Below, piece after piece: positions 9,599 through 32,763 of a stretch of DNA of 64,000 bases. A program made the translations under genes and the position numbers. Position 1 is the stretch's first letter. Each line of letters begins with the position of its first letter. Source of the stretch: Escherichia coli (GTDB lineage: Bacteria; Pseudomonadota; Gammaproteobacteria; Enterobacterales; Enterobacteriaceae); the NCBI RefSeq assembly GCF_030013595.1, contig NZ_CP122768.1; one strand, 5' to 3'. Below the pieces are notes generated by a model that was not told the DNA's origin, did no database searches, and worked only from the letters and a program-made list of their open reading frames with translations.

Positions 9599-9622
9599 GT
9601 TTATTTCCTGATTCAGAAAACA

Positions 9623-10711: not shown

Positions 10712-10920
10712 AACTGAAACGTCTCCTTCACTTCCGGTTCATATACCCAGTCCGGCAACACGATTTCCACTCCCGACGGATAGACCGGACCAAGGTCAGC
10801 CAGCCCGGGATTGGCTTCCAGTACCGCCGCCAGTGACTGGTTAAGCCCGGCACTGCCATAGTGTCTCTGACAGATGTCATCCAGCATATCGCCGTCAGTG
10901 GTCCGCCAGTTTTTCGCCAT
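10702..10920 (-). CDS. tail protein X-like (LysM-like)
   Basis: 72-aa ORF between U-like and D-like genes; size and position. Confidence 0.6.
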   Translation of the reverse strand: MAKNWRTTDGDMLDDICQRHYGSAGLNQSLAAVLEANPGLADLGPVYPSGVEIVLPDWVYEPEVKETFQLWD

Positions 10921-13470: not shown

Positions 13471-13522
13471 CTCCTAAAAAAAGAAAAGGCGGCCTGAGCC
13501 GCCTGAATGGCAGATCCCCGGA

Positions 13523-14041
13523 TTAAACCCGGATGATTTTTTTCAGATCCGACAGAACATTAACGCCGTTAATACGACGTACAAATTCCTCCGGAATAAT
13601 GCAGATGGTTTCCAGGCCATCGACAGCCTGACGGTAATAACTCAGTGACATTTCCACTGTCACCGAAGCCTCTGCCTGTGATGTTGCCGGACGTGCATCC
13701 GGCGTGATACTGGTGATCATCCCCTGCAGGGTTTCCACCTGTCCGCTGGTCGCATTTCCCACCCGATAAGCCTGGCGCACAACAATCTCCGGCGAATAAA
13801 GCCCGGCCTGCAATCCCAGCAGCGTAAGCATGGCAACATCATAACCATAAATCTTAAACGAACAGGTCAGCGCTTCCATGCCGTCATCCACTGCCACCGG
13901 TGCATCCATTGCGCCGGTTTTGATATCCACTGTCGTGATATTAATGGCAGGCGGCGTGTATTCATGCGCACCCTGAAGGCGGATCCCGCCAGGAAGAAAT
14001 AACGCCCATGCACGCAACAGTTTTTTTTCACCCGTAATCAT
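13523..14041 (-). CDS. tail tube protein (FII-like)
   Basis: 172-aa ORF directly downstream of the sheath gene. Confidence 0.75.
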   Translation of the reverse strand: MITGEKKLLRAWALFLPGGIRLQGAHEYTPPAINITTVDIKTGAMDAPVAVDDGMEALTCSFKIYGYDVAMLTLLGLQAGLYSPEIVVRQAYRVGNATSGQVETLQGMITSITPDARPATSQAEASVTVEMSLSYYRQAVDGLETICIIPEEFVRRINGVNVLSDLKKIIRV

Positions 14042-15513
14042 ACCGTCAGTTCCTCCAGCGCCAGTTTATTGTTAATCATTGCCCGCAGTGTCAGGCGCTC
14101 CAGTGGTGACTTCGGCCCAAAGTCATAATCGATATACAACTGCCCTGCCGCCAGGGTTTCTGCTGTATTCAGTTCATCATTCAGCCAGGCGCTGCCACCG
14201 TGGATCGCACCCAGATTTTTAAGCTGACGCATATAGGCATTAATGCTGCCAAGAATGTCGTCTGCCACATCCCGATCAAGCGGGCGATCGACATAAGGCA
14301 ACATGGCCTCCTGGATACTGTCCTCAATCACATCTGCAGTGCGACGTACCGGTTCAAAGCGCCACTGACTGTGGGATGTGCACAGACGGTTACCCCAGTG
14401 TTTAAAACCGTCATGGCGAATAATGGTGGAGATATTTTCCATGTTCAGCAGGTTTGCCGTGCAGTTCTGCTCCCCGAGAATAAACGTATCCACCTGCTCC
14501 AGACCGGTGATATTCATCACGTCCTGGTTTGATTTGGACCACCACCACCCTTTTTCATAATCAATACGGGCACGCAGCCCGGCAGCACGAGCCGAATATG
14601 GACGAAATACCGTTTGCCCGCTGTCATCCGTCACTGACACGCGCGGACGCAGCAGCTCCACACGTCCGCCAAATGACGCGCGCCGCTGAACCACATCCTG
14701 CGGCGTTGCCATTGAGGGCGAGTCAATATAGGCCACAGCCCGCAACTTCGCGGCATACGTTTCCAGCGCCTTTGCCACGCCATCATCCTCACTGTACCCC
14801 GTGGCAATGAGGATGCGCGGTTGATAGCCTGTCACGCCCTTACTTTCTGTCAGCGCCTCCATGGCCTGAATCACCGCCGCACGCTGTTCGGCCTCTTTCG
14901 CCTTTGCTTTACTTTCTGCGCGCACCACAATCACCAGCGCACCAGTCTGGTCAAAAATATCACGCAGGGCCGGGTATAATGTTCCGGCTGTGCCCAGTTT
15001 CCCCGCCTGAGTAATGGCCCCTGCCACCACCACCGGTGTGTTGACCGGGAACGCCTCATCTTCCCCGCCGGATAACGTCAGGCTGAACGGCGACACCACT
15101 TTATTTTCAGCGCCTCCTGCATTCAGGGTGCTGGCAGCCGCCGTCACAGGCGAATCCCCCAGCGCATTCACCACTTCAGTCACACAATCCACCGTGGCGT
15201 TAACCTGGCTGTGTTCGTCCGTCCCCAGTGTTATCGTCAGGGTCGTACCTTTCAGCGAGGCCACTGTCTGCGCGTTTTGTTCCGTGGCAGCCACGGCAAC
15301 AACCGAAATCTTATTACCGACCCGACCTTCCTGTTTCGCCGTGAAATCCAGCGCCGTTCCCAGCAGCCAGGAACCGGCTGTGCCGGAAGCGCACACACCA
15401 CCAGAGGCGTCCGGCGCTGTCCCCACCAGGCCAATCACTGCCGTGGAGATGGTTTGCACGGCAACCGTGCCTGTCGTCAGTTCAATGGTTTCAACACCAT
15501 GTAATCCGGACAT
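14038..15513 (-). CDS. contractile tail sheath protein (FI-like)
   Basis: 491-aa ORF preceding the tube gene; sheath size class. Confidence 0.8.
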   Translation of the reverse strand: MSGLHGVETIELTTGTVAVQTISTAVIGLVGTAPDASGGVCASGTAGSWLLGTALDFTAKQEGRVGNKISVVAVAATEQNAQTVASLKGTTLTITLGTDEHSQVNATVDCVTEVVNALGDSPVTAAASTLNAGGAENKVVSPFSLTLSGGEDEAFPVNTPVVVAGAITQAGKLGTAGTLYPALRDIFDQTGALVIVVRAESKAKAKEAEQRAAVIQAMEALTESKGVTGYQPRILIATGYSEDDGVAKALETYAAKLRAVAYIDSPSMATPQDVVQRRASFGGRVELLRPRVSVTDDSGQTVFRPYSARAAGLRARIDYEKGWWWSKSNQDVMNITGLEQVDTFILGEQNCTANLLNMENISTIIRHDGFKHWGNRLCTSHSQWRFEPVRRTADVIEDSIQEAMLPYVDRPLDRDVADDILGSINAYMRQLKNLGAIHGGSAWLNDELNTAETLAAGQLYIDYDFGPKSPLERLTLRAMINNKLALEELTV

Positions 15514-15567
15514 ACATTTCTCCCATAAAAAAACCGCCCTCAGGCGGTCAGATGATTAACTTCTTTT

Positions 15568-16113
15568 TCAGGTATTTTGTGGCTGCTCAGGCCAGCTAAT
15601 ATTGTTGTAAGTGGTCTTATCCGTAATAGCGCTGAAATCCATCGCCTGCAGCGATTTCGCGTAAATGCGGTACGCTTTGAGCTTTTCCCTGTCTTCGTCA
15701 CTGATTAATCCCAGCAGCAGGTCTTTTTCCCATTCGCTGGTCATGATGCTGACCTGTTTTAACAGTGCATCACGCTCATCTTCCGCTTTAAGTTTGTAGT
15801 CAAAAACAAATTCATCATTGCGGTAGAACCAGTATCCCGACGCCTCAATGCGACGATTAGCGGTAATATCCGGCAACTCAATCACACTTTTATTTTCCGG
15901 GCAGATTGAGGTGATGTCTTTTCCGACCCAGACCACTTCGCCAGTTTCAACATAAATAACTTTCAGAGTGTCTGGCTGAAATTTTTCCTGGGCTTCGTGC
16001 CATTCCTGACCATCATCGGAGAACAGCCACAATAAAAATTTATGCTGTCGTGCCAGCTGGTATTGCTCAATTGTTTTAGGGTTTTGTGCCGTAAGATTTT
16101 TTAAGTGCATCAT
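15568..16113 (-). CDS. tail fibre assembly protein (gpG-like)
   Basis: 181-aa ORF downstream of fibre gene H. Confidence 0.65.
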   Translation of the reverse strand: MMHLKNLTAQNPKTIEQYQLARQHKFLLWLFSDDGQEWHEAQEKFQPDTLKVIYVETGEVVWVGKDITSICPENKSVIELPDITANRRIEASGYWFYRNDEFVFDYKLKAEDERDALLKQVSIMTSEWEKDLLLGLISDEDREKLKAYRIYAKSLQAMDFSAITDKTTYNNISWPEQPQNT

Positions 16114-16115
16114 GA

Positions 16116-17465
16116 TTACAAACTCGCTACATTTCGCCAGACACCATTAATCAGAACCTGCACCGGGCGTGCATTGGCCCAGTCCACACTTTCACCGCCA
16201 TCAACACCACTCAGTAAATGACCTGATGGCGCATTTCCTCCGCGTCCAATACCAATGGCACCTCCCAGACGCACATCCTGCACACCACCTGTTCTGGTCT
16301 GGTAACGGGCATCAAAATTTCCGTAGTTTGATGGAACCATCTGCCCGTTTACGGCAAACGTTATGCTGTTATCCGTATTCCTCTGACTGTAAAAATGCCA
16401 GCCAGAATCATCACCAAGCTCTGCAACAACAGGCCTTGAGGAATTTCCCCATAGACTAAATCTTGCACTCTTCGTGGAAGAACTGTCACACGACAGCGTG
16501 AACTTTCTTAAATTGCCGGTCGAGAGATTTTCTAATGCCAGCACACCGTTTTTTGTAAAACGAAAGGCGTTGTGTCCCTCTGCAAACACATTAATAACAC
16601 CGCGTCCGCCCCACTTAAAACCGGTATTGCTATCACAGAGCGTGAGTGATTTTTCACCCAGATTGTTCTCATTACCGATGCCAATCCTGTCACCAATAAC
16701 CACATCGCCCTGGCGCAGGTTAATGGAAATGGGCCGCAGTGGGCCAATATCACCATTTTCTCCATGGTCTTCCTGCGTGGGAATGAAGTGCAGGTAATCT
16801 TCTGAACGACGAAAAATCAGGCCAAAAGCCTCGTTGAAAATCCTCAGCGCATTAACACCACGGATTTTCAGTTCCCCGGTCATGGTGTCACCATCACGCT
16901 GAACGGCATTTTTTGCCTTGTCCACCGTGGGTTTTAATCCGAGGTTTTCAACAGCCTCATCCTTGTCTTCCACATCCGAAAGATTCTTTTTTCGTTGCAG
17001 ATAGCGTCTGTCTCCGATTTCCTGAGTAATAATGGCCCTGTCCGGATCAACTTCCAGCACCACGTTTTGTGCGTGCGTCAACCCAAGAACCAGCGTCAGA
17101 ATAACTTCCTTGATAACGGAGTCCGTCTGGTCTGGTAAAAAGGTGTCGGGATAACGTCCGTACGCGATAAGCGTACCTCTGTCGCTGATCATCCCCAGTT
17201 CACGAAGGGTTTTACCGGGGTATGATTTACAGTCAATCACAATATCCCCGCTGATGAAGCCCTCCTCCACCGCACCGTCGGAAAAGGGTTCCTGCCCGAA
17301 TTCGCCGTACAACGATGTCATTGCTGCCATTTCATCCGGCGTGGATGGCAATGCACGCCCGCCCCCGTCACCAAGCAGAACATGCCGGACGGTCACGGTT
17401 TGCCCGTTCTGATATGCTGCTTCAATTTCTGCAGCGCCGGACGTTGTCAGAATCAGTCCATTCAT
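16116..17465 (-). CDS. tail fibre protein (gpH-like)
   Basis: 449-aa ORF after baseplate I, Gly-rich C-terminal region. Confidence 0.7.
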   Translation of the reverse strand: MNGLILTTSGAAEIEAAYQNGQTVTVRHVLLGDGGGRALPSTPDEMAAMTSLYGEFGQEPFSDGAVEEGFISGDIVIDCKSYPGKTLRELGMISDRGTLIAYGRYPDTFLPDQTDSVIKEVILTLVLGLTHAQNVVLEVDPDRAIITQEIGDRRYLQRKKNLSDVEDKDEAVENLGLKPTVDKAKNAVQRDGDTMTGELKIRGVNALRIFNEAFGLIFRRSEDYLHFIPTQEDHGENGDIGPLRPISINLRQGDVVIGDRIGIGNENNLGEKSLTLCDSNTGFKWGGRGVINVFAEGHNAFRFTKNGVLALENLSTGNLRKFTLSCDSSSTKSARFSLWGNSSRPVVAELGDDSGWHFYSQRNTDNSITFAVNGQMVPSNYGNFDARYQTRTGGVQDVRLGGAIGIGRGGNAPSGHLLSGVDGGESVDWANARPVQVLINGVWRNVASL

Positions 17466-18052
17466 ACACCTGCCTCACTCTGCCCGCCTGTGGGCACTGT
17501 CTTTGTTGTCACACCGGTACTTCTGATTTTTTCTGTCGCCATCACATAGCCGTAACCAAATCCACGCCCTGTGCTGTTCCCGTAAACGTGAATACTGAAC
17601 CAGCTGCGCAGATTTTTGGCACGGAGCACCGCATGCTTCAGATCCTGATGATCATTCATCAGCACCGGTAAATCTTTCTGCTCCACGTTCAGACGGAAGG
17701 TATACGGCTCCCCGGGTGGGGTCTGCTCATACCACTCAACAATCTGCGACCGGAAGGGACTGTCAGCCAGCGATGCCATCAGCGCCGCTTTAGTCCCTCT
17801 GTGGCGGTGGATGTATGCAGCACGTTTTATCGCAGACCGTTTTTCCGCCTCCGTCCAGTGTTCATTCCAGGTGTCCACCGCCATTTCCCAGGCCAGCCAT
17901 GGCAGCAATTCAGCAGGACATAAATCGGGATTTTTGACATAGCGGATCAGACATACTGCGATTTCCGCCAGCATATCACCGGCGGTACTGTCCACCACCC
18001 GCTCTGCCCGGCTGGCACTGACCGGCAGTATGCTCCTGATATCGTCATTCAT
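17462..18052 (-). CDS. baseplate protein I-like
   Basis: 196-aa ORF in P2 V-W-J-I order. Confidence 0.65.
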   Translation of the reverse strand: MNDDIRSILPVSASRAERVVDSTAGDMLAEIAVCLIRYVKNPDLCPAELLPWLAWEMAVDTWNEHWTEAEKRSAIKRAAYIHRHRGTKAALMASLADSPFRSQIVEWYEQTPPGEPYTFRLNVEQKDLPVLMNDHQDLKHAVLRAKNLRSWFSIHVYGNSTGRGFGYGYVMATEKIRSTGVTTKTVPTGGQSEAGV

Positions 18053-18959
18053 CAGTTGTCTCCACCTTATTCAGCGTTACCTTGCGGCACCACGGTGCCT
18101 GCCCCATCGCAGGAACGATATCACTGCCCGGAGAGGTCAGATTCACCGTAATCACCCCGGTCTGGTGAAGGGCACCATCCATGCCAGAACGGGATGCCAC
18201 CGAGCCAATCAGGTGGACGCTGTCAGTGTATGACTGCAGCGCCTTGCGGGCATTTGCCATAACCAGTTCACCATCCAGTCCGTAGGGAATATGAATATCC
18301 GCCACCACATCGTAGGGAATAATTTCTGCCGTCCGGACACTGACAAAATCCGTCAGGGGACGGGTTTCATCATCACAGACTGATGCTGCCACCTTATCCA
18401 GCAGGGGTTGTGATGCAGTGCCATTTCCGGACCGGGATAACACATAAAGAAAAACACGCCCTTCCTGTGAATGCGTTTCCGGCCCGTAAGCCTTCACATC
18501 CAGCACATCAGGATCAGCACTTTGCGCAAAATAGTGGTACGCATTTTTCGCGCCGGCGGTGCTCAGCCGTGCCCATGACAACTGGATACGTTCGCGAAAA
18601 GCGTCATCATCTTCATACACCGCAGGCGTGGGCGGAATGGTGCTGTCATCTGCCGGGGTAATCACCAGACGCTGCACCTGAAAATTCGCACCAATCTGAT
18701 CCAGGTCGTTCCTCCGGGCACTCGCAAGCAATACACCCCGGACAGCATCATTGACCTGCTGGCGCATCAGCGCCACGCGAAAAGCCAGCGCCTCTGCCCA
18801 TTTATACGCCGGATCGGATTCCACCAGGGCCGAAAACAACGTGTCCAGCTCCTGATACTTCGTCACTATCTGAGTGACCAGCACAGCAGTGTCCGGCACC
18901 TCCACCGCATCCGGTACCGGTATCGCAGACAGATCAATAATTGCCTGAGACGTTGCCAA
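18045..18959 (-). CDS. baseplate J-like protein
   Basis: 304-aa ORF, position between W and I. Confidence 0.7.
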   Translation of the reverse strand: MATSQAIIDLSAIPVPDAVEVPDTAVLVTQIVTKYQELDTLFSALVESDPAYKWAEALAFRVALMRQQVNDAVRGVLLASARRNDLDQIGANFQVQRLVITPADDSTIPPTPAVYEDDDAFRERIQLSWARLSTAGAKNAYHYFAQSADPDVLDVKAYGPETHSQEGRVFLYVLSRSGNGTASQPLLDKVAASVCDDETRPLTDFVSVRTAEIIPYDVVADIHIPYGLDGELVMANARKALQSYTDSVHLIGSVASRSGMDGALHQTGVITVNLTSPGSDIVPAMGQAPWCRKVTLNKVETTDE

Positions 18960-19290
18960 TTTTTATCTCCTCGAGTCGAATCGTATCCTGAGTTTCGTTA
19001 TTCACCCCGACAAGCGTCAGCCACGCGCTTCCTTCTCCTGTCCACGTCACTTCCACCCGCCGGAGAGTCAGGCGGGGTTCCCAGCGTTCAAGGGCGGTTA
19101 CCGTTTCGCGAACAATTCTCACCCGCGTGAAATCATCCTGTGGGTTATCAAGCAGACTGAAAAGTCTGCTGCCGTATTCCCTGAGCAGGACCCGGCTGCC
19201 GGCCGGTGTTGACAAAATATCAGTGACGGACTGGCGCAGATGTTCGTTACCGTGCAGATATCTGCCGGTGGCTGAATCAATACCAATCAT
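18934..19290 (-). CDS. baseplate wedge W-like (GPW/gp25 family)
   Basis: 118-aa ORF, position between V and J. Confidence 0.65.
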   Translation of the reverse strand: MIGIDSATGRYLHGNEHLRQSVTDILSTPAGSRVLLREYGSRLFSLLDNPQDDFTRVRIVRETVTALERWEPRLTLRRVEVTWTGEGSAWLTLVGVNNETQDTIRLEEIKIGNVSGNY

Positions 19291-19323
19291 GTTGTTTATT
19301 CCGGAAAAAGAACTGAAAGGAGA

Positions 19324-19947
19324 TTACATTTGCTGACCAGGCTGTCCGGTGCTGCCACCACTGTCGCCCCGGTGATTGTGACCGTTATAGACAATTCTGA
19401 TTTGACTCATCGTTCCGTGATAATCAGAAACCTCACCACCGACCATCAGATCCGCCTTAACCACCGCCTCAGCATTCATGGTTGCTTTACCCTGTACGGT
19501 CAGGGTATCTGTGATTTCTACCGGACCGTCCAGGGTTCCCCTGCCGGTAATTTTATAGCTGCCGCCTTCAGCCAGCGTGATGGACAGGGCATTAGCCTGA
19601 CGGTCGTAACGGATTTCCGTTCCGGTATCAAACAAAATAACATGTTCGTATTCACTGCCCTCAGGGACAGGAATGGCGTCAATATTGGCCCCCGGATACA
19701 CCCGACCGTTACGCAAATCGCCCGCCTCCGATATCACTGTAACGGCATCTCCGGGAGCCGGGTAATTACTGACCTGCATGTAGCGCCCGGACTGTACCTG
19801 AATCCAGGGCAACGGAGGCGAAAGCACATCCCCGATATCCACCCGAACCATCACCGGGCTACCCGGGATCACCTCGTCCACCACGCCGCGACGGACCATG
19901 TCCGCCACCCTGCGGCGTAACTCTGCCACTTCATCTGCCAGACTCAT
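19324..19947 (-). CDS. baseplate spike / assembly protein V-like
   Basis: Track ORF 19324-20241 trimmed to the internal Met (MSLADEV…), giving ~207 aa like P2 gpV. Confidence 0.6.
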   Translation of the reverse strand: MSLADEVAELRRRVADMVRRGVVDEVIPGSPVMVRVDIGDVLSPPLPWIQVQSGRYMQVSNYPAPGDAVTVISEAGDLRNGRVYPGANIDAIPVPEGSEYEHVILFDTGTEIRYDRQANALSITLAEGGSYKITGRGTLDGPVEITDTLTVQGKATMNAEAVVKADLMVGGEVSDYHGTMSQIRIVYNGHNHRGDSGGSTGQPGQQM

Positions 19948-20497
19948 CACCGGTGCCCTCTGTTTTCCAGATAAGACGATAATCCCGCTCATGTTTCTTG
20001 CCGGTTTCCGGAGCTTTCCCCAGCCAGACTTCCTGTAAAGGCGCACCAGCCGGAACCTCGAACGGATCTTCTCCGACAGGAATATCCTGTTCAAAAGAAA
20101 CGCGGAAAACGATGTAGTCATCCAGAAGCCGGTCGAAGGTATCCACCTCAGCATCAATAAAAACAGCCGGATCAACGTTATCCAGCCCGAACGTGGCCCC
20201 CTCAATCCAGTCAGATAAATCCATCGCCAGACAACGGGCAAAAATCTGCGGTTTTGGCACGTTTTCCGTCTTCCCGGCCCGGTCTGTCACCACAAACAGA
20301 TCACATTTCAGCGTGACCCGCGTCTGCCCGTCGGCAAACTGAGCCTTGTCCCAGCCCGGTACATCCACAAACACGGCAGGCGTCACCAGTTGCGTCACTT
20401 TTTCCGGATACTCATCGGCATCTTCCACCCAGGGAATTTGTTTCAGACTGTCAATCACCGCCTGATGCCAGGCGCCCATCATCAATGGCTCCATCAC
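19931..20497 (-). CDS. virion morphogenesis / head-tail joining protein (unassigned)
   Basis: 188-aa ORF between head and baseplate modules. Confidence 0.4.
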   Translation of the reverse strand: MMEPLMMGAWHQAVIDSLKQIPWVEDADEYPEKVTQLVTPAVFVDVPGWDKAQFADGQTRVTLKCDLFVVTDRAGKTENVPKPQIFARCLAMDLSDWIEGATFGLDNVDPAVFIDAEVDTFDRLLDDYIVFRVSFEQDIPVGEDPFEVPAGAPLQEVWLGKAPETGKKHERDYRLIWKTEGTGDESGR

Positions 20498-21216
20498 TCC
20501 AGCCCCTTAAATACCCGGAATTTCAGTTCATGCTCAAAATTTTTCAGGATCAGTGCTTCCGCATCCGGAAAAACAAAATCCTCTATACGGTTCAGCATGG
20601 CTTCATAAATATCAATTTCCGCTTCACGCACCCTCCGTCGTCCGGATGCCTGTCGGATCAGTATCGTTTTCCTTTTTGATATACGTCCGTTACGATTTTC
20701 CGCTTCGAACTGGTTGATAAAGGCATCATCCGTTGACCAGGTGGTGACAGGCAGGGATTCCCCGGCAGGTTTAAAACTGATCTCCCGAGCCTTCCTGCGG
20801 CTGGAAGCTGGTGCAAAACGCCCCCGCTCATCGCGCAACTGATGGCGTTCGCCGCGTCGTCCCCCACTGATGCGTCCGCGCAGATCGCGTACTTTGATGG
20901 CGTTCAGACCGAACCATACCTTCGCCTCATCAAACTCATCACCGTTACGACGAATGATAAAATTATGCAGAACACGCTTTTTGATCATTTTCTGACTGCG
21001 TGGCGCAACCTGTTTTTTAAACTCTGCCAGGGCCTTCATCCGCAGTGCAGACGCGGCTCTTTTCAGCGCCACGCCCCAGGCTTTACGGATCTGACTTTTT
21101 GACCCACCCAGTTTAGCGATAATTTTCAGCACCTCATCTTCATCAATATCGACAACGAGGTTTCGTGCCAGCCGTCGCTGCCGGGCACTGCTTCGTTCAT
21201 GCTCTCTGACTGCCAT
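20494..21216 (-). CDS. virion morphogenesis protein (unassigned)
   Basis: Track ORF 20494-21276; start placed at internal Met MAVREHER; basic, Arg-rich. Confidence 0.4.
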   Translation of the reverse strand: MAVREHERSSARQRRLARNLVVDIDEDEVLKIIAKLGGSKSQIRKAWGVALKRAASALRMKALAEFKKQVAPRSQKMIKKRVLHNFIIRRNGDEFDEAKVWFGLNAIKVRDLRGRISGGRRGERHQLRDERGRFAPASSRRKAREISFKPAGESLPVTTWSTDDAFINQFEAENRNGRISKRKTILIRQASGRRRVREAEIDIYEAMLNRIEDFVFPDAEALILKNFEHELKFRVFKGLE

Positions 21217-21604
21217 AACGTTTACTCGGTCGTTCCGGTGCAGCAGGTGTATTTCTCCCGGGCTCTCCACGCGCAAGGGTGATGGTAATCACCCCCTGAC
21301 CCGCAGCGCCTGACTCATCCCAGCCGGGATCGACTACCTGATAGGGTTCGCCGTGGATCATGACCCTGTCATATTTTTTCAGACCGGCGGCCCATGCGCT
21401 CCGGGTAAATAACACGGGCGCAGTATCACGAATTTCGCCGCTGCCAGTGTTCATCCCGGTGTTATCTGCCGGGGCATCAAAAACGGCACGGATTTTTCTT
21501 TCCGTGCCGCCCGGATATATGCTGATTTCCGTCCCCATCGTATCCAGGATGATGTCATCCGCATCACTCATGGCCTGATCGAACAGATTATCGAACATCA
21601 TCAC
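21197..21604 (-). CDS. head-tail adaptor / head completion protein (unassigned)
   Basis: 135-aa ORF in the head-tail joining block. Confidence 0.4.
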   Translation of the reverse strand: MMMFDNLFDQAMSDADDIILDTMGTEISIYPGGTERKIRAVFDAPADNTGMNTGSGEIRDTAPVLFTRSAWAAGLKKYDRVMIHGEPYQVVDPGWDESGAAGQGVITITLARGEPGRNTPAAPERPSKRYGSQRA

Positions 21605-21966
21605 TCCCGGATTTTTTCTGCCAGACCGTCTGCCAGCAACGCGGGAACTGTGGCTTCATTAACCAGCACAACACTGGAGGCCCGGGCAAACATCAACATT
21701 TTTCCCGTCACAGCATCACAGGCTGGCATATGCGCCGTTTTCAGCATACGCACCCGGGCGAGTCCCTGCTCAGAATGCATTCCGTCGCCGGATGCATCGT
21801 TGCCCACCTCTTCCTTCCCCGTCTCCTCCCCATCGAATCCAGCGGCCTCCTCCTCCCATTCCGCCAGACGCTGCTCAAGATCGGCTTTTGAACCTGAAAT
21901 ATCTGCTTCACGCCCCAGAATCACTGCCAGTTCCTGCAAACGTTCAGTCATCTGCTCTTTTGTCAT
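21601..21966 (-). CDS. hypothetical head-associated protein
   Basis: Track ORF 21601-22098 trimmed to internal Met MTKEQM to avoid overlap with the capsid gene; acidic. Confidence 0.35.
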   Translation of the reverse strand: MTKEQMTERLQELAVILGREADISGSKADLEQRLAEWEEEAAGFDGEETGKEEVGNDASGDGMHSEQGLARVRMLKTAHMPACDAVTGKMLMFARASSVVLVNEATVPALLADGLAEKIRE

Positions 21967-22016
21967 CACATCTCTCCCGTGCGCTAAAGAAAAAGGCGGG
22001 AATATCCCGCCCTGTC

Positions 22017-23045
22017 TTATTTCACCTGAACCACCACAAACGCATCCGGATCCGGCAGCACCATCAACGGCGCAGACTGCGTCATTGTATATTCGCAACC
22101 AGGATCCCCCACTTCCTCCCAGTGTTTCGGATAACGAATCGCAGAGGTGATCCCTTCACTCAGCGCCTGATTATCCTGGATTGCGCCATAGCAACGGACG
22201 CCCTCCGCCTGAGTGTTTCCCAGAATCAGTGTACCTTCCGGCAGATAACGCTGTTCATCCCCGTTTTCGTCAACATACGTTGTCTTCGCCACCACGACAG
22301 CCAGATCGCCGTACCAGCCCTTAAAGGAAACCACGGAACCCAGGTCTTTCAGTGCGGTTTCCAGCTCAGATTTGGAGCCACGGCGGGTATCCAGTTTTTC
22401 ACGGAACAGTTTAAAACCGTTCAGCATACGCCAGACCGTGCCGTCCATAATCGCGATATTGATGGTACCGGAAGCAAAATCGCAGTACGCATCAAGATCA
22501 TGCGTCGGATCAAAGGTGTCAGCATTCTGCTTTGACCATTCGCGTCCGCCAGCCTGCGTAATGTTATTGGCGGCAGAACGCCCAAAATCCACTTCCACCG
22601 TCTCAAACTGCTCGCCGCTCATAGTGTATTTACCCTGCAGAACAGCACTGACTGCCTGCATTTCTTCCACCTGCACAATCGCCTGCTCTTCCTGTTTCAG
22701 GTTGTCCGTCAGAATACGCAGACGGCGGTAAGCCGGGTCATTAAGGCGGGCCGGATCTTCCCCCGGAAGACGTTCTACAGCCTGCTGATAATCAAAGCGG
22801 TGTTTTGGTTTTACATAACCGGGACGTAACACGCGGGTTTCACCACCACGGCTGCGCAGCACTTTGCCTGACACCACCGGAGACACATACGCCGCAACCG
22901 GTGTTTTGCCGGTAATTTTATCCAGCATGACTTCCTGAGTATGGAAAGTGATCGTGCGACGAAAGAACAGCTCAAGAAACAGCGCACGAAATTTCACTTT
23001 CTGCTCGGTGTACCCGAGTAACTGACGCGTGGTAAATAACCCCAT
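22017..23045 (-). CDS. major capsid protein (lambda gpE family)
   Basis: 342-aa ORF following the decoration gene; size and position as lambda E. Confidence 0.8.
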   Translation of the reverse strand: MGLFTTRQLLGYTEQKVKFRALFLELFFRRTITFHTQEVMLDKITGKTPVAAYVSPVVSGKVLRSRGGETRVLRPGYVKPKHRFDYQQAVERLPGEDPARLNDPAYRRLRILTDNLKQEEQAIVQVEEMQAVSAVLQGKYTMSGEQFETVEVDFGRSAANNITQAGGREWSKQNADTFDPTHDLDAYCDFASGTINIAIMDGTVWRMLNGFKLFREKLDTRRGSKSELETALKDLGSVVSFKGWYGDLAVVVAKTTYVDENGDEQRYLPEGTLILGNTQAEGVRCYGAIQDNQALSEGITSAIRYPKHWEEVGDPGCEYTMTQSAPLMVLPDPDAFVVVQVK

Positions 23046-23114
23046 AATTTATATTCCTTCAGAAACACAAACGGGCCGCATCGCGACCCGTTTTTTCAGT
23101 TAATCACTTCACCA

Positions 23115-23450
23115 TCAGGCGTGGCTGATGGCACTTCCCACAAATGCGTTGGCTTTTTTCACCGCATCCACCGAACCAGGCCAGACCAGCGACTCAGTGG
23201 CAAACGTACCGCTTTTGTAGTACGTCAGCATGGGCTCGGTCCCGGCAAGCGCCAGAGCCAGCACACCCACAGCCGTTCCGGCTTTCTGACCATCCCAGAC
23301 AACCAGTTTTCCGGTGGCGTCATCCACCATCAGTGGCGTCAGTGCAGGTGTGGCAGCACTGATACCACTGGTGGCTGTTGCGGTATGCGCCGGATCGCTT
23401 CCGGCAAAAATGCGCGCATCTGCACGCTTTTCCGTGGTGGTTTTAATCAT
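23115..23450 (-). CDS. head decoration protein (lambda gpD-like)
   Basis: 111-aa ORF between protease/scaffold and capsid genes. Confidence 0.7.
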   Translation of the reverse strand: MIKTTTEKRADARIFAGSDPAHTATATSGISAATPALTPLMVDDATGKLVVWDGQKAGTAVGVLALALAGTEPMLTYYKSGTFATESLVWPGSVDAVKKANAFVGSAISHA

Positions 23451-23488
23451 TTTTCAGCCTCCTGATTTATCTGAATTCCGGATATCGC

Positions 23489-25105
23489 TTACGGCATACT
23501 CATCAGCAGGTCTTCCTCACCGCGCCCGGCAGTTCCGCCACCGGAAACCGCACTGGCAGCATGCTGTGCCATAAAGCGATCAAAAAGTGTTTCCTGTGAC
23601 GGTTGCGATGCCGCCGGCGCGGCTGCCAGCAGCGTTTTCGCCTGCGCCACCGTCATTCCCGGTTGTTCTGTCAGTGCCTGTGCAAGTTGCTCGCGCCCTT
23701 TTGCCTCCGGCAGCGCCATAATCTGATCGCCGACACTTGCAGAACCAGCAACCGGTGCCGCCGCCAGTAACGTTTTGGCCTGGTCAACGGTCATTCCCGG
23801 CTGTTCAGCCAGCGCCTGCGCGAGTTGTTCACGCCCTTTTGCTTCCGGTAACGCCATAATCTGATCGCCTGTGCCTGCAGCACCAGCAGCAGGGGCTGCC
23901 GCCAGAAACGCTTTCGCCTGCTCCACCGTCATCCCCGGCTGACCTGCCAGCATCTGTGCCAGTTGCTCACGCCCCTTTGCTTCCGGCAGCCCCATAATCT
24001 GATCGCCCGTGCTGTCAGTACCGGCAACCGGCGCAGCTGCAAGCAACGTTTTCGCCTGCTCAACCGTCATTCCTGGCTGACCTGCCAGCATTTGCGCCAG
24101 TTGCTCGCGCCCTTTCGCCTCCTGACAATTCAGGATCCCCATCACGCGCTGATTTTCCTGGGCCACCGCTTCAGCAACGGTGAGATTTTTAACAGTCATT
24201 GCATTCTCCTTCGTAACAGAGTCATTCAGTACAGAAACCATCACTTCAACGGCATCTGCAGCATTAATCAGTTGATCAGCCAGGCCTGCATCAATGCCTG
24301 CCTGACCGTCATAAACGGCAGCCTCGGTATTCATCACCGCCTCTGAACTCAGCCCCGTATAAAGCGCCACCTTGTCGACAAACATCCGGCGGGCCTCATC
24401 AATACGGCGCTGAAAATCTGCACGCACACCTGCCGGCAATGCCTGAATACTGTTGCCGTCAACCTTATGCTGCCCGGAGTAAATCAGCGTGATGTCCACC
24501 CCTTCCTGTGCCAGTTGTTTCTCGTAACTGGTGTGCGCCATCATCACGCCAATCGAACCAATTTTTGCCGTCTGCGTGACCAGCCGACGGGTACAGGCTG
24601 CCGCCAGCAACATGGCGGCTGAACAGGCCATGTCATTACACAGCGCCCACACGGGCTTCTGTTCCCGCAGACGGTAAATCATGTCAGCACAGTCAAACGC
24701 CCCGGCAGCCTGACCGCCCGGGCTGTCGATATCCAGCAAAATGCCGCGCACATCCGGATCATTCACCGCCATCTGAAGGCGGGCCGTCAGGCCGTCATAG
24801 CCAGTCATGCCGGAGTAAGGCCGCAGGGTACCCAGTTTATGCACCAGCGTGCCGCTCACCGGAAGAATGGCGATGCCATTCTTCACCTGGTAACTCTTTG
24901 CCGGACGCTGACCGCCCGCCATATAGTCAGTCACAGCCAGTTGCATACCATCAGCATCAAGCTGAACAGCCTGCTGAGGAACGGCAAGGCTGCCGGCACC
25001 CATCTCTTTACCCAGCGCGCAAAAGAAAACCCGCGCATAGGCGGGTTCCAGTAAAAGCGGCTCATTAAATGCCATGGCGGCAATATGCGATAAATTACGA
25101 CGCAT
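23489..25105 (-). CDS. prohead protease fused to scaffold (lambda C/Nu3-like, S49 peptidase) with C-terminal ~46-aa repeats
   Basis: N-terminus MRRNLSHIAAMAFNEPLLLEPAYARVFF resembles lambda C; C-terminal repeats PEAKGREQLAQ.LA.QPGMTV.QAK.LLAAAP occur about 3.5 times. Confidence 0.85.
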   Translation of the reverse strand: MRRNLSHIAAMAFNEPLLLEPAYARVFFCALGKEMGAGSLAVPQQAVQLDADGMQLAVTDYMAGGQRPAKSYQVKNGIAILPVSGTLVHKLGTLRPYSGMTGYDGLTARLQMAVNDPDVRGILLDIDSPGGQAAGAFDCADMIYRLREQKPVWALCNDMACSAAMLLAAACTRRLVTQTAKIGSIGVMMAHTSYEKQLAQEGVDITLIYSGQHKVDGNSIQALPAGVRADFQRRIDEARRMFVDKVALYTGLSSEAVMNTEAAVYDGQAGIDAGLADQLINAADAVEVMVSVLNDSVTKENAMTVKNLTVAEAVAQENQRVMGILNCQEAKGREQLAQMLAGQPGMTVEQAKTLLAAAPVAGTDSTGDQIMGLPEAKGREQLAQMLAGQPGMTVEQAKAFLAAAPAAGAAGTGDQIMALPEAKGREQLAQALAEQPGMTVDQAKTLLAAAPVAGSASVGDQIMALPEAKGREQLAQALTEQPGMTVAQAKTLLAAAPAASQPSQETLFDRFMAQHAASAVSGGGTAGRGEEDLLMSMP

Positions 25106-26666
25106 CGACTTTTTCTCCCGTTGTCTGTCGGATCTGCTGCTGAAACGTGTCCTTTATCCAGATGGGGCGGGGAAGACCCGCTGCCTGTCGCTCCTGGCTT
25201 TCACGCAGTTGCTGGCGGAAAATCTCCTGATAGTCATCGCCCATCAGGGCCAGCTCTTTCTCATACGTGCTTAAACCACCTTCAATACGCATCACCGCTT
25301 CCTGCACTTCCTTAAGGCCATCAATCGCCATGCGACCGGCACCAATCCACTCGGCACGACACCATCCGGAACGGGCCTCCCAGAATGAAAAACGGGATTT
25401 CGGCGGGCGGATCACACCGCGAATAAGTGCTTCCTCCAGCCAGCAGGCAAACATCTGTGATGCCAGTCGACTGGCCACAAATTTTCGTTTGCCCATAAAA
25501 TACCGCCACGACTCATTGGCGGATGCCCTGGCACTGGAATAACTGACCTGTGAATAATCACGGGAAAGCTGTTCATAGGACACCCCCAGTCCGGCAGCGA
25601 TGTAACGTAACAGCGCCTTTTCCAGTTCAGAGAAACCATTATCTGCATTCTGCGCTGTCTGCAGATTCAGTGAATCCCCCGGATAAAGATGCGGAATACG
25701 GACCCCGCCCAGCTTTACCGTATTGGTGGCGTAATAACGCGCGTAGCCTTTCATGATGGTGTTCAGGGGATTTTTACCGCCATCTCCCACCCCGGCGATA
25801 TATTCAAATGCTTTTTCCGAATCCAGCGTGGATTCAATCGTCGCGGCATACATCGCCCGCACCACCGCCGACTGCAGTTGCGTGGCCTGCAGTGTGTCGA
25901 GCATCTTGAGGCGCTCCATGACAGAATAAAACTGGTTGGCCCCGCGCGTCTGTCCGTCCTCCTGCGGCTGAAACACATGGATCATTCCCGGTCGCCCGGA
26001 GGGCAGCGTCGCCGCAATCCGCGTCCAGTTGCTGACACCGTAACCGGGCCAGTCATCTTCCTGAACATGGTAGGCCAGTGCTTTTCCGTACCGGTTGATT
26101 TCCACCCCGGCACGCATAAAACGATCGCCGGTACCATAACCGGGTGTACTGACACGTTTCGGGCTGATGGTTTTGAATTTCGTCCGGAATAATGACGTGG
26201 ATTCCGTATCCCATACGGGCTGGACAAAAATTTCACCGTTAAATGTATGAACGCCCACCCCTTCACGAATAAATTCGGTAAACGAGCGACGCCCCTCCAC
26301 ATCCATCGAACCAAACACCGGATCGCAGAATTCCATCCACGCCGCCTCCACATCTTCAATAAAGGCATGTGAATCGGCTTCCGACATCCCCAGCCAGCGC
26401 CAGTTGGGCCGGTAACTCAGACGAAACATGTGTCCGACGATATGGTCTTTATGAATTTCAACGGCGTTTGCGGCAATACCGTTATTGCGGACCAGATCAT
26501 CCGCACGGGCGTTACCCAGCTGAATGGAAGGTAAGAGCGCCACGTCGGCACTTTCCGGTGCAGGCAGCCATTCCGCAAGCTGCCCGCCAAATCCGGTACC
26601 CCCTCCGGAATACCCCATACTCTGCCGCAGTGGCTGCCCGTGAAGATCCACCAGTTCCCCGTTCAC
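25095..26666 (-). CDS. portal protein (lambda gpB-like)
   Basis: 523-aa ORF between W and C homologues. Confidence 0.85.
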   Translation of the reverse strand: MNGELVDLHGQPLRQSMGYSGGGTGFGGQLAEWLPAPESADVALLPSIQLGNARADDLVRNNGIAANAVEIHKDHIVGHMFRLSYRPNWRWLGMSEADSHAFIEDVEAAWMEFCDPVFGSMDVEGRRSFTEFIREGVGVHTFNGEIFVQPVWDTESTSLFRTKFKTISPKRVSTPGYGTGDRFMRAGVEINRYGKALAYHVQEDDWPGYGVSNWTRIAATLPSGRPGMIHVFQPQEDGQTRGANQFYSVMERLKMLDTLQATQLQSAVVRAMYAATIESTLDSEKAFEYIAGVGDGGKNPLNTIMKGYARYYATNTVKLGGVRIPHLYPGDSLNLQTAQNADNGFSELEKALLRYIAAGLGVSYEQLSRDYSQVSYSSARASANESWRYFMGKRKFVASRLASQMFACWLEEALIRGVIRPPKSRFSFWEARSGWCRAEWIGAGRMAIDGLKEVQEAVMRIEGGLSTYEKELALMGDDYQEIFRQQLRESQERQAAGLPRPIWIKDTFQQQIRQTTGEKVDAS

Positions 26667-26872
26667 AGCCCCACTCCTGCCGGGCCGCGACGCCGTCCGG
26701 ATACGCCCAGCGCACTTTCCAGCTCTTCAATATACTGACGCAGTTCACCAATCGTCGCCCGCGAATACTGAACCTGACGCCCGTCCTTGCTGACGGAAAC
26801 CACAGCACGTCCGATCATCAGTTCATGTAATGCCCGGCGGGCATCACAAAGCATTTCATGCGTATAAACCAT
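26663..26872 (-). CDS. head-tail joining protein W (lambda gpW-like)
   Basis: 69-aa ORF; …RRRGPAG C-terminus like lambda W. Confidence 0.8.
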   Translation of the reverse strand: MVYTHEMLCDARRALHELMIGRAVVSVSKDGRQVQYSRATIGELRQYIEELESALGVSGRRRGPAGVGL

Positions 26873-26875
26873 TCT

Positions 26876-28792
26876 TTATCCTCCACTCAGTGCAGCCGCG
26901 ATTTCTTCCAGACTCATCTCATCGTCGTCCTGCTCATCTCTTCTGGCACGGGCCAGTGCTTCAAGATCCAGCTGCCACCGCTGAACTGAAATACGCAGGG
27001 CAGCATAGGCATATACCAGGCAGTCGAGGGCTTCGTTGCGTCGCCCTTTTTTATCCCACAGCAGTTTCACCCTGCCATTAACCACCTTCTCCACCAGCTC
27101 TTCCGCCACGATCTGACGCGCCTCTTCTTCCGAAAAAATGTCGGGGTTATCAGGAAAACGGAAGGTGTACGGGGCGGCTTCACTGGCAGAGACCACTGGC
27201 AGGGCAAAACGGGCGTACAGCATTTCCTTGACGGTATCGGAGCCCACCTCACACAAAAACACACCACGCTGGTTGCGCTTTTTGGGCATGGTGATCACCG
27301 GCTTGCCGTACACCGATGCCCCTTTTATGGGAAGCACAAAAAAAGTGCCGTGTTTCCTTGAACGCTGATACACAATGTCCTGGTCGATACCACCGGTATC
27401 CCAGCAGACACGGGAAATGGAAATTTCAGTACCGTCAGCATGACGATATTTTTTCCGGATCACCGTATCAACACGTTTAAGGGTGTCCTCGTCTTCCGGT
27501 CGCCCCATGATAATTTGCTTATCAATCAGAAAGGCTTCTTCGCCGGGAGCCCAGCCCCAGACATAAATTTCATAGCGATCTTTCTGGGAGTCGATCCCGG
27601 CGGTCAGGTAAACCACCCGCAGGGGAACCTGCGCACCATAGTGGCAGACCTTTTCCAGTAACAACTCAAAACTCAGCTTTTCTGCCACAGCCTCTTCATA
27701 GGGCTCCCCGAGCGTGGTGTTAATAAACGTCTTGACGCCGTTCGGATCCTTCAGCGCATCCAGCCAGTCATAAACAATCTGTACCCAGGTGGTGAACGGA
27801 CTATACGCCGTCCAGATGTGGAAAGTGACGGAGCGCGGCGGTGGCATCTCCTCATCGCCGGCGCTGTAAAATGCCAGGCCGTCGCGCGTCCACATCCCGG
27901 TATTGTCACAAATCCAGCGCCCGTCGGTCTGGTCAAGTTCCGACTGCCGGATCACACAGCCATTATGTTCACACAGGTAATACACCGTTTCCGGTTTACC
28001 CTTCTCCCATTTCAGGCCAAATGGCGTCGCATCATCGCCAAACTTCAGATACTGGGCCTCCCCGCAATGAGGGCAAGGGACATAAAACCGCATGAAATGC
28101 GCTGATTCATTTGCGGCTTTCTCAATCTGGCAGGAGCCTTTAATTTTTGGCGTTGAGCCACGTATGGATTTAGGCCATACCGAGCCTTCGATACGCTTAT
28201 CGCCAAGCAGCGTCGGCGAACCTTCTTTTTCCACATCCGGTTCAAACGAGGAGAGTTCGTCATAGCAGACCACATCCACAGATTTTTCACGGTAGTTTTT
28301 AGCAGCGGCGCCGCCAAGGCACCAGAAACCCACACCGGAGGAAAAACGCTTCAGGGTGAGTGTATTATCGCGGTGCTTTCTTCCGAACCATGGAGCCAGC
28401 TCCAGCAATGCAGGAACATCCCTGATCGTTGGCTCAACATGAGATTTCATGAAATCTTCTGCAGCAGAATCTGTTGGCTGAAAAAGCAGACTGTTACGGG
28501 ATTTATGCTCAATAAAATAAGCCTCCACCCCCAACAGCATTTTGGTGTAACCAACGCGCGCCGATTTAATCAGATTAACGGTGCGGATCCGGTCATTTCC
28601 CATGCTGTTCATAATGGCAACCTGAAACGGCAGGGTTTCCCATTGTCCGGGAGTGTATGAAGATTCTTTCGGCAGATAATAATGTTGATCAGCCCACTGA
28701 ACCGTCGTCAGTGGAACCGGAATATTGAGAGATAAAAGCCCTGTAGCTATCGCACCGGCTGCATTAGCTGCCTTCTGTGCGTCTGAAATCAT
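26876..28792 (-). CDS. terminase large subunit (lambda gpA-like)
   Basis: Track ORF 26876-28834; strong resemblance to lambda A (YYLPKES, KSARVGY.KMLLGV.AYFIEHK, Walker-like motifs); start placed at MISDAQ. Confidence 0.9.
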
Positions 28793-29312
28793 CAATCCAC
28801 CTGCCCACGTTTTCACCGGCTTTAGCTGCAACATTGGAGGCTTTCGCGATTTCAGTTTTCACCACATCAAGGTGTGACGGTGAAATATCCGGATATTTAC
28901 GCTGTAATGTCAGCGGCACACGTACAAGTATCCCCGAAATCTCCTGTGCCACACGTTGCAGAATGAAGGTAAACAATTCTGTTTCCAGCACCAGCCCTTC
29001 TTCACGGGCATTTTTCAGCTCCTGTGCGTCAGCCTGTGCTTTGGTTAACCGGTAGCGTTCATAGTCAATGGTGCCGGGTTGTAAATCTGATTCTGCAGTC
29101 GCACGCAAATCTTCCAGTTCTTTGCGGAGCTTTTCGTTTTCGATATCTTTTTCCCGCTGCGCATACCACTCAATGGCTTCTGCAGTATTGAACATGGCTT
29201 CGATACCTTTGCCTCCCCCCGACAAAACTCTCAGCCCCTGACTTTGCCAGCCAGTGATTGTTCTGACATCGCACTCAAAAATTTCCGCCAGTTTCTTTTT
29301 GTTAACCTTCAC
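28764..29312 (-). CDS. terminase small subunit (lambda Nu1-like)
   Basis: 182-aa ORF; N-terminus [12 protein letters not shown]…GGGKG resembles lambda Nu1 HTH and ATP-reactive region. Confidence 0.85.
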
Positions 29313-32453: not shown

Positions 32454-32528
<75 letters not shown>

Positions 32529-32531
32529 ATA

Positions 32532-32607
<76 letters not shown>

Positions 32608-32609
32608 AC

Positions 32610-32686
32610 TGGACCGCCACCGGGGACTCGAACCTCGCACACTCAACTTAAAGGGTTGACGCTCTTTCCCGATGAGCTAGTGGCGG
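32610..32686 (-). tRNA. tRNA with nominal anticodon UUU (Lys) but atypical anticodon loop (C at position 33)
   Basis: Acceptor ccgccac/gtggcgg, GGTTCGAGTCC T-loop, anticodon arm tcaac-CCTTTAA-gttga; one mismatch in the T-stem. Confidence 0.45.
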
Positions 32687-32687
32687 T

Positions 32688-32763
32688 TGGTGGCCCTTGC
32701 TGGATTTGAACCAGCGACCTGGCGATTATGAGTCGCTCGCTCTCACCACTGAGCTAAAGGGCC
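32688..32763 (-). tRNA. tRNA-Ile2 (anticodon CAU, ileX/ileZ-like)
   Basis: Sequence closely resembles E. coli minor tRNA-Ile (GGCCC.TTAGCTCAGTGGT.AGAGC…GACTCATAATCGC…GGTTCAA.TCC…GGGCCACCA). Confidence 0.7.

Follow-up and report, generated by a model that had tools for sequence, protein, structure and literature searches.

Based on its sequence, the locus described here is an E. coli prophage head protease/scaffold gene of the lambda C/Nu3 design (gene 5/gene 6 in phage 21), in which the scaffold part carries four tandem copies of a 46-aa module. We consider it probable that these modules act as multivalent contact points of the scaffold, which the protease encoded by the same gene would later cut up. 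The gene lies on the minus strand of the window, i.e., the whole 64,000-nucleotide stretch of E. coli DNA that was analysed, together with the following parts and neighbors:

25095..26666, minus strand: portal gene, matched by phrog_21 portal protein with E 1e-179; it runs into the start of the protease gene, like lambda B into C
23489..25105, minus strand: lambda C-type prohead protease/scaffold gene, 538 aa, stop codon included (ORF list, Pfam, PHROG)
24200..25105, minus strand: protease part, aa 1-302 (Pfam, NCBIfam)
24239-24670, minus strand: Pfam S49 core within the protease part (Pfam)
24620-24622, minus strand: codon of Ser162, which with Lys214 makes up the putative Ser-Lys dyad of the protease part (alignment)
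23115-23450, minus strand: head decoration gene, the downstream neighbor of the protease gene (PHROG match; phrog_49 / phrog_2353 for the decoration and capsid genes)
22017-23045, minus strand: major capsid gene, downstream of the decoration gene (PHROG match; similar to phage 21 gp7)

The product had been described beforehand as a C-like protease, and profile searches bore this out: Pfam PF01343 (Peptidase_S49) covers aa 146-289 of the 538-aa ORF with E 3.8e-33, phrog_53 ('head maturation protease') matches it with E 2e-216, and the NCBIfam SppA_dom model spans aa 78-290. A 100%-identical gene on the chromosome of E. coli ETEC6335 is annotated there as 'S49 family peptidase'. Ser162 and Lys214 are invariant when the 538-aa protein is aligned with phage 21 gp5 and lambda C; the lambda equivalent of Ser162 is Ser166, which we take to belong to the catalytic dyad. 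The head module follows the order terminase - W - portal - C - D - E - FI - FII, as in lambda, and the encoded capsid protein shares 82% identity with phage 21 gp7 and 59% with lambda E, while the protease part has 73% DNA identity to phage 21. Of the features that characterize the lambda C/Nu3 type, an S49 domain with a Ser-Lys dyad, a position between the portal and capsid genes, and a Nu3-homologous C-terminal region were found; the scaffold part matched lambda nu3 by tblastn with 47.7% identity (E 5e-12).

Very probably, the last 236 aa are in addition translated on their own as a scaffolding protein, from a Shine-Dalgarno (SD)-like sequence and an ATG internal to the gene:

24206..24211, minus strand: SD-like AAGGAG, 6 nt upstream of an internal in-frame ATG (sequence reading)
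23489..24199, minus strand: nested Nu3/gp6-like scaffold ORF, 236 aa, MTVKNLTVAEAV..., of putative expression, in frame with the protease C-terminus

The AAGGAG-N6-ATG arrangement places the candidate scaffold start at 24199, and five other alleles as well as phage 21 have a purine-rich SD-like run 5-8 nt 5' of the equivalent ATG. This run is kept in the DNA across alleles while the residues encoded there vary, and the scaffold Met1 is invariant in an alignment with 12 homologues. The nested ORF aligns to phage 21 gene 6, for which M81255, the phage 21 record, gives an RBS and a gene start at the equivalent site (residue 302 vs 303). Lambda Nu3 differs in that it starts at Met239, inside the protease domain; the window and phage 21 both have Ile at this position, and their nested start is near residue 303.

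Within the scaffold part, Tandem Repeats Finder detected a repeat with a period of 138, 3.7 copies, 80% matches, no indels and a score of 596 at 23614-24122. A second repeat search gave 237-nt copies at 138-nt spacing and 79% identity, and the 16-mer CCATAATCTGATCGCC has three exact occurrences, at 23716, 23854 and 23992 (0.04 expected by chance). These results confirm the ~138-bp tandem units encoding a 46-aa repeat that the preliminary description had read in this gene, including its example of a sequence recurring at about 130-145 bp (in fact precisely 138 bp). Its statement that the Nu3-like C-terminal part is made of this unit also stands, with four units at aa 321-504; the term 'near-identical' applies to the protein core, but not to the whole units, whose identity is 65-85% for the protein and 64-79% for the DNA. 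The units and the tail that follows them are:

24008..24145, minus strand: repeat unit 1, aa 321-366, VMGILNCQEAKGREQLAQMLAGQPGMTVEQAKTLLAAAPV + linker AGTDST (unit HMM match 321-360)
23870..24007, minus strand: repeat unit 2, aa 367-412 (HMM match 367-406), without counterpart in the 3-copy phage 21/Salmonella proteins
23732..23869, minus strand: repeat unit 3, aa 413-458 (HMM match 413-452)
23594..23731, minus strand: repeat unit 4, aa 459-504 (HMM match 459-498; AlphaFold2 three helices, pLDDT 89-94)
23492..23593, minus strand: conserved C-terminal tail, aa 505-538, ETLFDRFMAQH ... LLMSMP (alignment, AlphaFold2)

The four 46-aa units begin at residues 321, 367, 413 and 459 (24145-23594, minus strand), with the motif EAKGREQLAQ beginning at residues 329, 375, 421 and 467. 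In units 2-4 the first helix reads GDQIMALP, but in unit 1 VMGILNCQ, which is why the DNA count is 3.7 and not 4. The module consensus is xxxILAxxEAKGRExLAxxLAxxPGMTVExAxxxLAAAP, and the modules are joined by short Ala/Gly/Thr linkers and followed by the conserved tail (LFDRFM...LLMSMP). In the tail, residues F206, F209, M210 and P236 (scaffold numbering) are invariant among the aligned homologues; AlphaFold2 predicts a helix at LFDRFMAQH with pLDDT ~79 and disorder in the remainder.

A profile built from the module finds 1918 representative proteins, phage protease or scaffold, typically with a single match, either towards the C-terminal end in proteins of 430-550 aa or in proteins of 130-200 aa. 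The unit HMM matches lambda C once, at 361-400, and phage 21 gp5 three times. The likeness to phage 21 genes 5/6 includes the gene order, the nested start with its SD, the tandem module in the scaffold part and a matching C-terminal tail. However, phage 21 has three mutually diverged modules (e.g., EAKGAEAQAE in the third), whereas the four in the window are much more uniform; in the protein alignment with the 3-copy homologues, unit 2, the extra module, forms an insertion behind module 1, the scaffold has 236 aa in comparison to 200 aa, and the window prophage encodes a contractile tail, unlike phage 21. GenBank M81255 annotates the Tri1/Tri/Tri3 boxes of phage 21 as 'Tri boxes, function unknown'; the window shares the tandem ~40-aa modules in a nested scaffold, but with four of them rather than exactly three. 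A literature search on Tri boxes, phage 21 head genes and tandem repeats in S49 prophage scaffolds found nothing relevant in the collection of papers searched. The lambda C/Nu3 gene is also flanked by portal B and D/E and encodes an S49 protease with invariant Ser and Lys, a scaffold nested in frame, and the module followed by a related tail; unlike in the window, the single lambda module is preceded by a ~55-aa low-complexity linker. The 'S49 family peptidase' proteins of Gifsy-1/Salmonella and E. coli O157-type prophages have an equal architecture and scaffold parts 45-65% identical to that of the window, but they contain three modules, have longer and more variable linkers, and are far commoner than the window type.

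A published interaction map of lambda reports interactions of Nu3 with B, C, E and itself (PMC3224144). Each module in the window may be a protein-protein contact point for the capsid protein, the portal and/or other scaffold chains, and the array could thereby give rise to a multivalent scaffold and a multivalent tethered protease, held by the modules inside the procapsid. Such a scaffold would nucleate shell assembly and be co-packaged, and the protease would later cut it, plausibly in the linkers, so that the scaffold can leave the procapsid. A functional analogy is offered by the P22-type scaffolding protein, an otherwise flexible scaffold with a helix-turn-helix coat-binding domain in its C-terminal part; this small helical element is believed to contact the capsid protein. 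The P22 scaffold has no protease fusion, is recycled rather than degraded, and contains one binding domain; PDB sequence and fold searches gave no match between the window module and P22-type scaffolds. Staphylococcal protein A, with tandem three-helix-bundle binding domains of ~58 aa, is an analogy only, with no homology and a different biology.

We considered whether the repeats could instead form a flexible spacer or length ruler that sets scaffold distance or mass without specific binding by the modules, which appears unlikely. Ala, Gln and Gly are abundant in the scaffold part, accounting for 50, 25 and 24 of its 236 residues, and lambda Nu3 is described as largely disordered. Lambda Nu3, with one module and its long low-complexity linker, has 201 aa, similar to the 200 aa of phage 21 gp6 with three modules, and the AlphaFold2 model of the whole 236-aa scaffold, based on 12 homologues, has a pLDDT of 55.8, resembling a flexible chain and too poor for a fold search. 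Nevertheless, a deeper alignment predicts the unit as a compact three-helix mini-domain of ~40 residues with pLDDT 89-94, and E-A-x-G-R-E, L-A and P-x-M-(T/S)-x-E-x-A are invariant or nearly so in 45 diverse units and in ~1900 representative proteins, unlike what a mere spacer would retain. Furthermore, the post-protease length in the family ranges from roughly 130 to 260 aa and is therefore not tightly fixed.

The preliminary description had also regarded the array as a place where recombinational instability or errors of assembly are likely. If it were a recent unstable repeat or a mis-assembly, the copy number in the window would be arbitrary and without functional meaning, which we find highly improbable. 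Copy number does differ within the lineage: the STEC005/STEC313 alleles have five units, with units 2 and 3 sharing 95% DNA identity, and units 2-4 of strain A34 are 96-98% identical, which indicates, at the level of sequence comparison, homogenisation. Many 'partial' database proteins end inside the first module as well (e.g., P0079, with 2623 members). The window allele, on the other hand, has unit pairs with dS 0.7-1.7 and dN/dS 0.09-0.39, and the longest exact direct repeat between units is 18 bp. Efficient RecA recombination in E. coli usually takes roughly 23-27 bp of identity, and the 18-bp repeat falls below this requirement and below usual assembler k-mers. The 762-bp scaffold region is found with at least 99% identity and equal length in 16 complete genomes, and alleles with as little as 86% identity still have this length. 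Exact copies of the 538-aa protein occur on 104 contigs, and 12 of the 15 cluster members listed have 538 aa. Units are positionally orthologous across alleles with 97-100% identity; for example, unit 3 has 98% DNA identity to unit 4 of STEC005 and unit 3 of Oki. Long identical DNA and copy number varying among near-identical genomes, the marks of an unstable or recently expanded repeat, are absent from the window allele and partly present in the STEC005 and A34 alleles. The independent complete assemblies strongly imply that the source strain has four units; the claim of instability or error is unsupported here, and the repeat in the window, not being an artefact of assembly, can be treated like any other sequence. 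Judging from these comparisons and from a dN/dS of 0.157 for the array between the window and EC11 alleles, the units are old and not near-identical in DNA, the array has grown by old tandem duplications, and it is kept by purifying selection on the protein.

Two further explanations are extremely improbable. A role of the periodicity in DNA or RNA, as a protein-binding array, recombination site or structured RNA, would agree with an exact 16-18-bp word at precise 138-bp spacing, but this word encodes the conserved peptide GDQIM, third codon positions take 18-26 of the 29-50 differences per unit pair, the period divides exactly by three and is free of indels, and the protein motif is kept in distant taxa whose DNA is unrelated. 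A helix-hairpin-helix-like (HhH) nucleic-acid-binding motif, by which the scaffold would contact DNA, was proposed by the superficial resemblance of LAxxPGMTVEQAKxLL to the HhH signature and by weak Pfam T2SSK matches (E 0.37 and 3.7), and was rejected: the module reads PGMT or PGMS in place of a G-h-G hairpin, the scaffold part has a net charge of -8, scaffolds have left, or are leaving, the procapsid when DNA comes in, and every score, from profile or fold search, is below significance. Pfam/NCBIfam searches of the repeat region gave chance-level matches only, as did the PDB sequence search (bL12 with E 0.11, and designed helical repeat proteins). The fold search gave no significant structural relative of the predicted three-helix unit; its match to RuvA (1ixs_A), below significance, falls in domain III, the RuvB-binding three-helix domain, and not in the HhH domains.

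Returning to the modules as contact points, we compared their number among related prophages, surveying 60 evenly spaced records and 6 loci from 826 members of the 90% cluster and 105 E. coli genomes. Copy number varies, with one module in lambda, three in phage 21 and the Gifsy-1-type proteins, four in the window and five in STEC005/STEC313, where the 584-aa allele is present in a few STEC strains. Of 5426 complete E. coli genomes, 3808 have matches to the protease part; the scaffold type of the window is found in 105 genomes. The four-copy scaffold was absent from the isolated phages in a collection of 50,697 records. On this sequence evidence four copies are the norm in its E. coli lineage, and the prophage gene represents a known arrangement in an ordinary and stable copy-number variant. 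The suggestion made beforehand that copy number changes scaffold length holds (236 vs 282 aa), while the partner capsid protein remains at 341-342 aa with a one-, three- or four-module scaffold; therefore, nothing suggests an effect on capsid size. Since lambda assembles a capsid with one module and a 59%-identical capsid protein, extra copies are not required in principle, and a benefit of higher valency is hypothetical.

More tentatively, it is possible that the module is an unnamed, widespread capsid- or portal-docking domain that targets S49 proteases and scaffolds into procapsids, and that its copy number (1-5) is tuned by unequal recombination or gene conversion and sets valency. If so, the four- and five-copy E. 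coli prophage alleles would constitute a natural dosage series for valency control of shell nucleation. The module has neither a Pfam family nor a solved structure, and ever since the phage 21 annotation its function has been recorded as unknown. The gene is a clear example of a feature of lambda-type head assembly that has attracted little attention: the protease-targeting/scaffold region consists of a conserved mini-domain whose number varies between similar head modules. Beyond the module count, the locus represents ordinary prophage structural-gene biology, and the series of one, three, four and five copies, all with capsid proteins of 341-342 aa, can be used for probing module binding and valency.

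Our analysis established that the scaffold part of the window gene consists of a conserved mini-domain under selection, repeated like beads on a string and shared with lambda Nu3. The tandem ~138-bp repeats of the preliminary description proved real. Tandem Repeats Finder detected one array at 23614-24122 (period 138, 3.7 copies, 80% matches, 0 indels, score 596), an independent seed-and-extend search returned in-register 237-nt copies spaced 138 nt at 79% identity, and a word count located exact matches of CCATAATCTGATCGCC at 23716, 23854 and 23992 (n=3 versus 0.04 expected by chance). The ORF list and the motif positions place the array as follows:

23489-25105, minus strand: array-bearing ORF, 538 aa
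24145-23594, minus strand: four 46-aa units, residues 321-504

The motif EAKGREQLAQ starts at residues 329, 375, 421 and 467. The first eight residues are VMGILNCQ in unit 1 versus GDQIMALP in units 2-4, and for this reason the DNA copy score is 3.7 rather than 4.

Eighteen residues ahead of unit 1, the sequence ACG AAG GAG AAT GCA ATG places AAGGAG 6 bases before an in-frame ATG at 24199, from which a 236-aa product is predicted. Five other alleles and phage 21 have a purine-rich SD-like run 5-8 nt ahead of the equivalent Met (CAGGAGG, CAGGAG, GAGGA, AGAGAGG, AGAGGAGG), while the residues encoded there vary (KEN, QEE, QEN, EDK, REV, RGG), the pattern expected if nucleotides, not amino acids, are constrained. 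All 12 aligned homologues retain this Met, and in phage 21 (M81255) an RBS and gene 6 are annotated inside gene 5 at exactly the equivalent position. Based on the SD-like run, the invariant Met and the gene 6 annotation, the earlier wording "fused protease-scaffold gene" is fair; more exactly, this is a C/Nu3-type nested pair whose inner scaffold ORF is probably expressed. Both the S49 protease with nested scaffold and the repetition of the module were already known. Lambda Nu3 starts elsewhere, at Met239, which aligns to Ile in the window protein and phage 21 (window 24398-24400; alignment A4 of the window protein, phage 21 gp5 and lambda C), and therefore the nested start is shifted ~64 codons downstream in the window/phage 21 branch. 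Despite the different start sites, lambda Nu3 (201 aa) and phage 21 gp6 (200 aa) are nearly equal in length, as modules acting purely as spacer would allow.

The modules themselves make a pure spacer improbable. A profile of 45 diverse units gave the consensus xxxILAxxEAKGRExLAxxLAxxPGMTVExAxxxLAAAP, in which A10, G12 and A17 are invariant and I4, E9, R13, E14, L20, A21, A31 and L35 nearly so. AlphaFold2 modeled the whole scaffold poorly (pLDDT 55.8), the only pattern being three short helices repeating per unit. In a construct of the last unit plus the tail (62-sequence alignment), the unit was predicted as three helices (construct residues 3-8, 17-24 and 31-40; pLDDT 89-94), followed by a tail helix, LFDRFMAQH (pLDDT ~79), and a disordered end. 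Such invariant positions and a confidently predicted fold are hard to reconcile with a mere spacer. A BFVD fold search returned other phage S49 peptidases; Pfam has no family for the module, and a PDB sequence search returned no relative of it. Against a database of 1.84 billion representative proteins, the profile gave 1918 matches at E ≤1e-3 and 229 at E ≤1e-10. Among the best 150 of the 1918, ~120 are single-copy and only a handful have at least three copies. The single copy typically sits 80-100 residues before the C-terminus when the protein is 430-550 aa long, or centrally when it is 130-200 aa long.

Five Bradyrhizobium "hypothetical proteins" (P0081, P0088, P0098, P0101, P0109; 160-225 aa) stand alone with two modules and no protease domain, and therefore separate scaffold-like genes carrying the module also exist well outside the enterobacteria. 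Two other database proteins, P0162 (844 aa; an unrelated ~400-aa N-terminal region joined to a complete lambda C) and P0042 (277 aa; a region with a precomputed PF01746 domain joined to a three-module scaffold region), look like assembly or gene-calling chimeras and not real architectures.

Lambda Nu3 is required for portal incorporation, and its reported partners are B, C, E and itself (PMC3224144). We infer that each module of the array may be a protein-protein contact point, and tandem copies would make both scaffold and protease multivalent, with the same array on both. The short Ala/Gly/Thr/Ser linkers are plausible protease cut sites, and cleavage there would leave scaffold pieces small enough to exit the shell. 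Capsid proteins of 341-342 aa pair with 1, 3 or 4 modules; as far as sequence can tell, copy number has no tie to capsid size. A four-copy scaffold is of interest to phage assembly specialists, although not surprising.

Module counts, obtained with a unit HMM and by inspecting the sequences, differ among relatives:

1 module: lambda; lambda-like proteins such as P0089
2 modules: some E. coli proteins; stand-alone ~160-225-aa Bradyrhizobium proteins
3 modules: phage 21; Gifsy-1-type Salmonella proteins; common E. coli prophage proteins
4 modules: window protein
5 modules: STEC005 / STEC313, 584 aa

The phage 21 copies are labeled "Tri1 box", "Tri box" and "Tri3 box; function unknown; putative" in M81255, so module repetition has been on record since that deposit.

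The preliminary description had also suspected repeat instability or assembly error, and for the window allele this is contradicted. Whole units share 64-79% DNA and 65-85% protein identity, their differences are concentrated at third codon positions (dS 0.73-1.73, dN/dS 0.09-0.39; Nei-Gojobori), and the longest exact direct repeat is 18 bp; the duplications are therefore old, and selection has maintained the protein sequence. Relative to the EC11 allele (86% identical), dN/dS is 0.157 in the array and 0.085 in the protease part, thus purifying selection extends across the whole gene. The scaffold region is present in 105 of 5426 complete E. coli genomes. In an evenly spaced sample (n=60 records), 49 of the 60 matched the full 762-bp query over an essentially equal span at 86-100% identity and have four units (one, STEC383, is a 757-bp frameshifted pseudogene); in six more, which also have four units, a linker is 9 bp shorter, and three have the 5-unit allele. 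The exact 538-aa protein occurs in 104 contigs, and 826 sequences make up its cluster at 90% identity (15 are listed: twelve of 538 aa, one of 584 aa and two partial). None of 50,697 phage genome records covered ≥80% of the 236-aa scaffold. Units are also positionally orthologous between alleles: window u1, u3 and u4 match STEC005 u1, u4 and u5 at 97-100% DNA identity, and window u2-u4 match Oki u2-u4 at 97-98%. Signs of recent change are found in STEC005, where u2 and u3 are 95% identical in DNA, and in A34, where u2-u4 are mutually 96-98% identical with exact runs up to 63-64 bp. The array expands and homogenizes over evolutionary time, but the window allele is a settled, diverged four-unit form. 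A DNA-level function of the periodicity is contradicted by the codon-position pattern of the unit differences, and HhH-type DNA binding by the lack of a G-h-G hairpin, by scores short of significance and by a net charge of -8.

A great many database proteins labeled "S49 family peptidase, partial" stop within the first module (P0079, P0077, P0075, P0103, P0104; 2623 member sequences in P0079 alone). Breaks of draft assemblies at this point are evidently frequent in the common three-module prophage genes, perhaps owing to the internal repeat or to several similar prophages per genome. In STEC383 (NZ_CP091026.1 2989442-2992598), the annotation marks the protease/scaffold, decoration and capsid genes alike as frameshifted pseudogenes, the protease-gene frameshift lying just ahead of and inside the repeat array; decay of the prophage or long-read indel errors left uncorrected may be responsible.

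The protease part contains Peptidase_S49 at residues 146-289 (Pfam, E 3.8e-33) and matches phrog_53 "head maturation protease" (E 2e-216), and several PHROGs "head scaffolding" and "capsid assembly" families align to the repeat region in 4-5 stretches; NCBIfam gave only sub-threshold SppA domain matches. Ser162 and Lys214 are invariant across the window protein, lambda C and phage 21 gp5, and Ser162 aligns with lambda Ser166, the reported nucleophile. The window is 100% identical to the E. coli ETEC6335 chromosome, whose annotation calls the gene simply "S49 family peptidase"; the gene is a generically annotated four-copy member, common in E. coli prophages. The neighboring genes all lie on the minus strand in lambda order:

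minus strand: small and large terminase
minus strand: W-like adaptor, after the terminases
minus strand: portal gene, overlapping the start of the protease/scaffold gene
minus strand: decoration protein gene, next after the protease/scaffold gene
minus strand: major capsid protein, 342 aa, after the decoration gene
minus strand: FI-like and FII-like proteins, after the major capsid gene

The capsid protein shares 82% identity with phage 21 gp7 and 59% with lambda E. It aligns to positions 1-314 of phrog_2353 "major head protein", and the FI-like ORF directly downstream (21601-22098, minus strand) to 317-481 of the same profile, so a single longer protein is annotated or made in some phages; fusion products, frameshift products or mis-annotation may explain the shared match. 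The lambda/phage 21-type head/packaging module (21197-29312) and a contractile tail module (7623-21276) belong to one prophage, which is a head/tail mosaic and not a lambda-like siphovirus. Its tail genes include:

14038-15513: tail sheath (phrog_23)
18045-18959: baseplate wedge
16116-17465, 8195-9598 and 7623-8195: tail fibers

Four adjacent tRNA genes (32454-32763, minus strand) are also part of the prophage and are located upstream of the terminase genes: Met-CAT, Lys-TTT, Thr-TGT and Gly-TCC.
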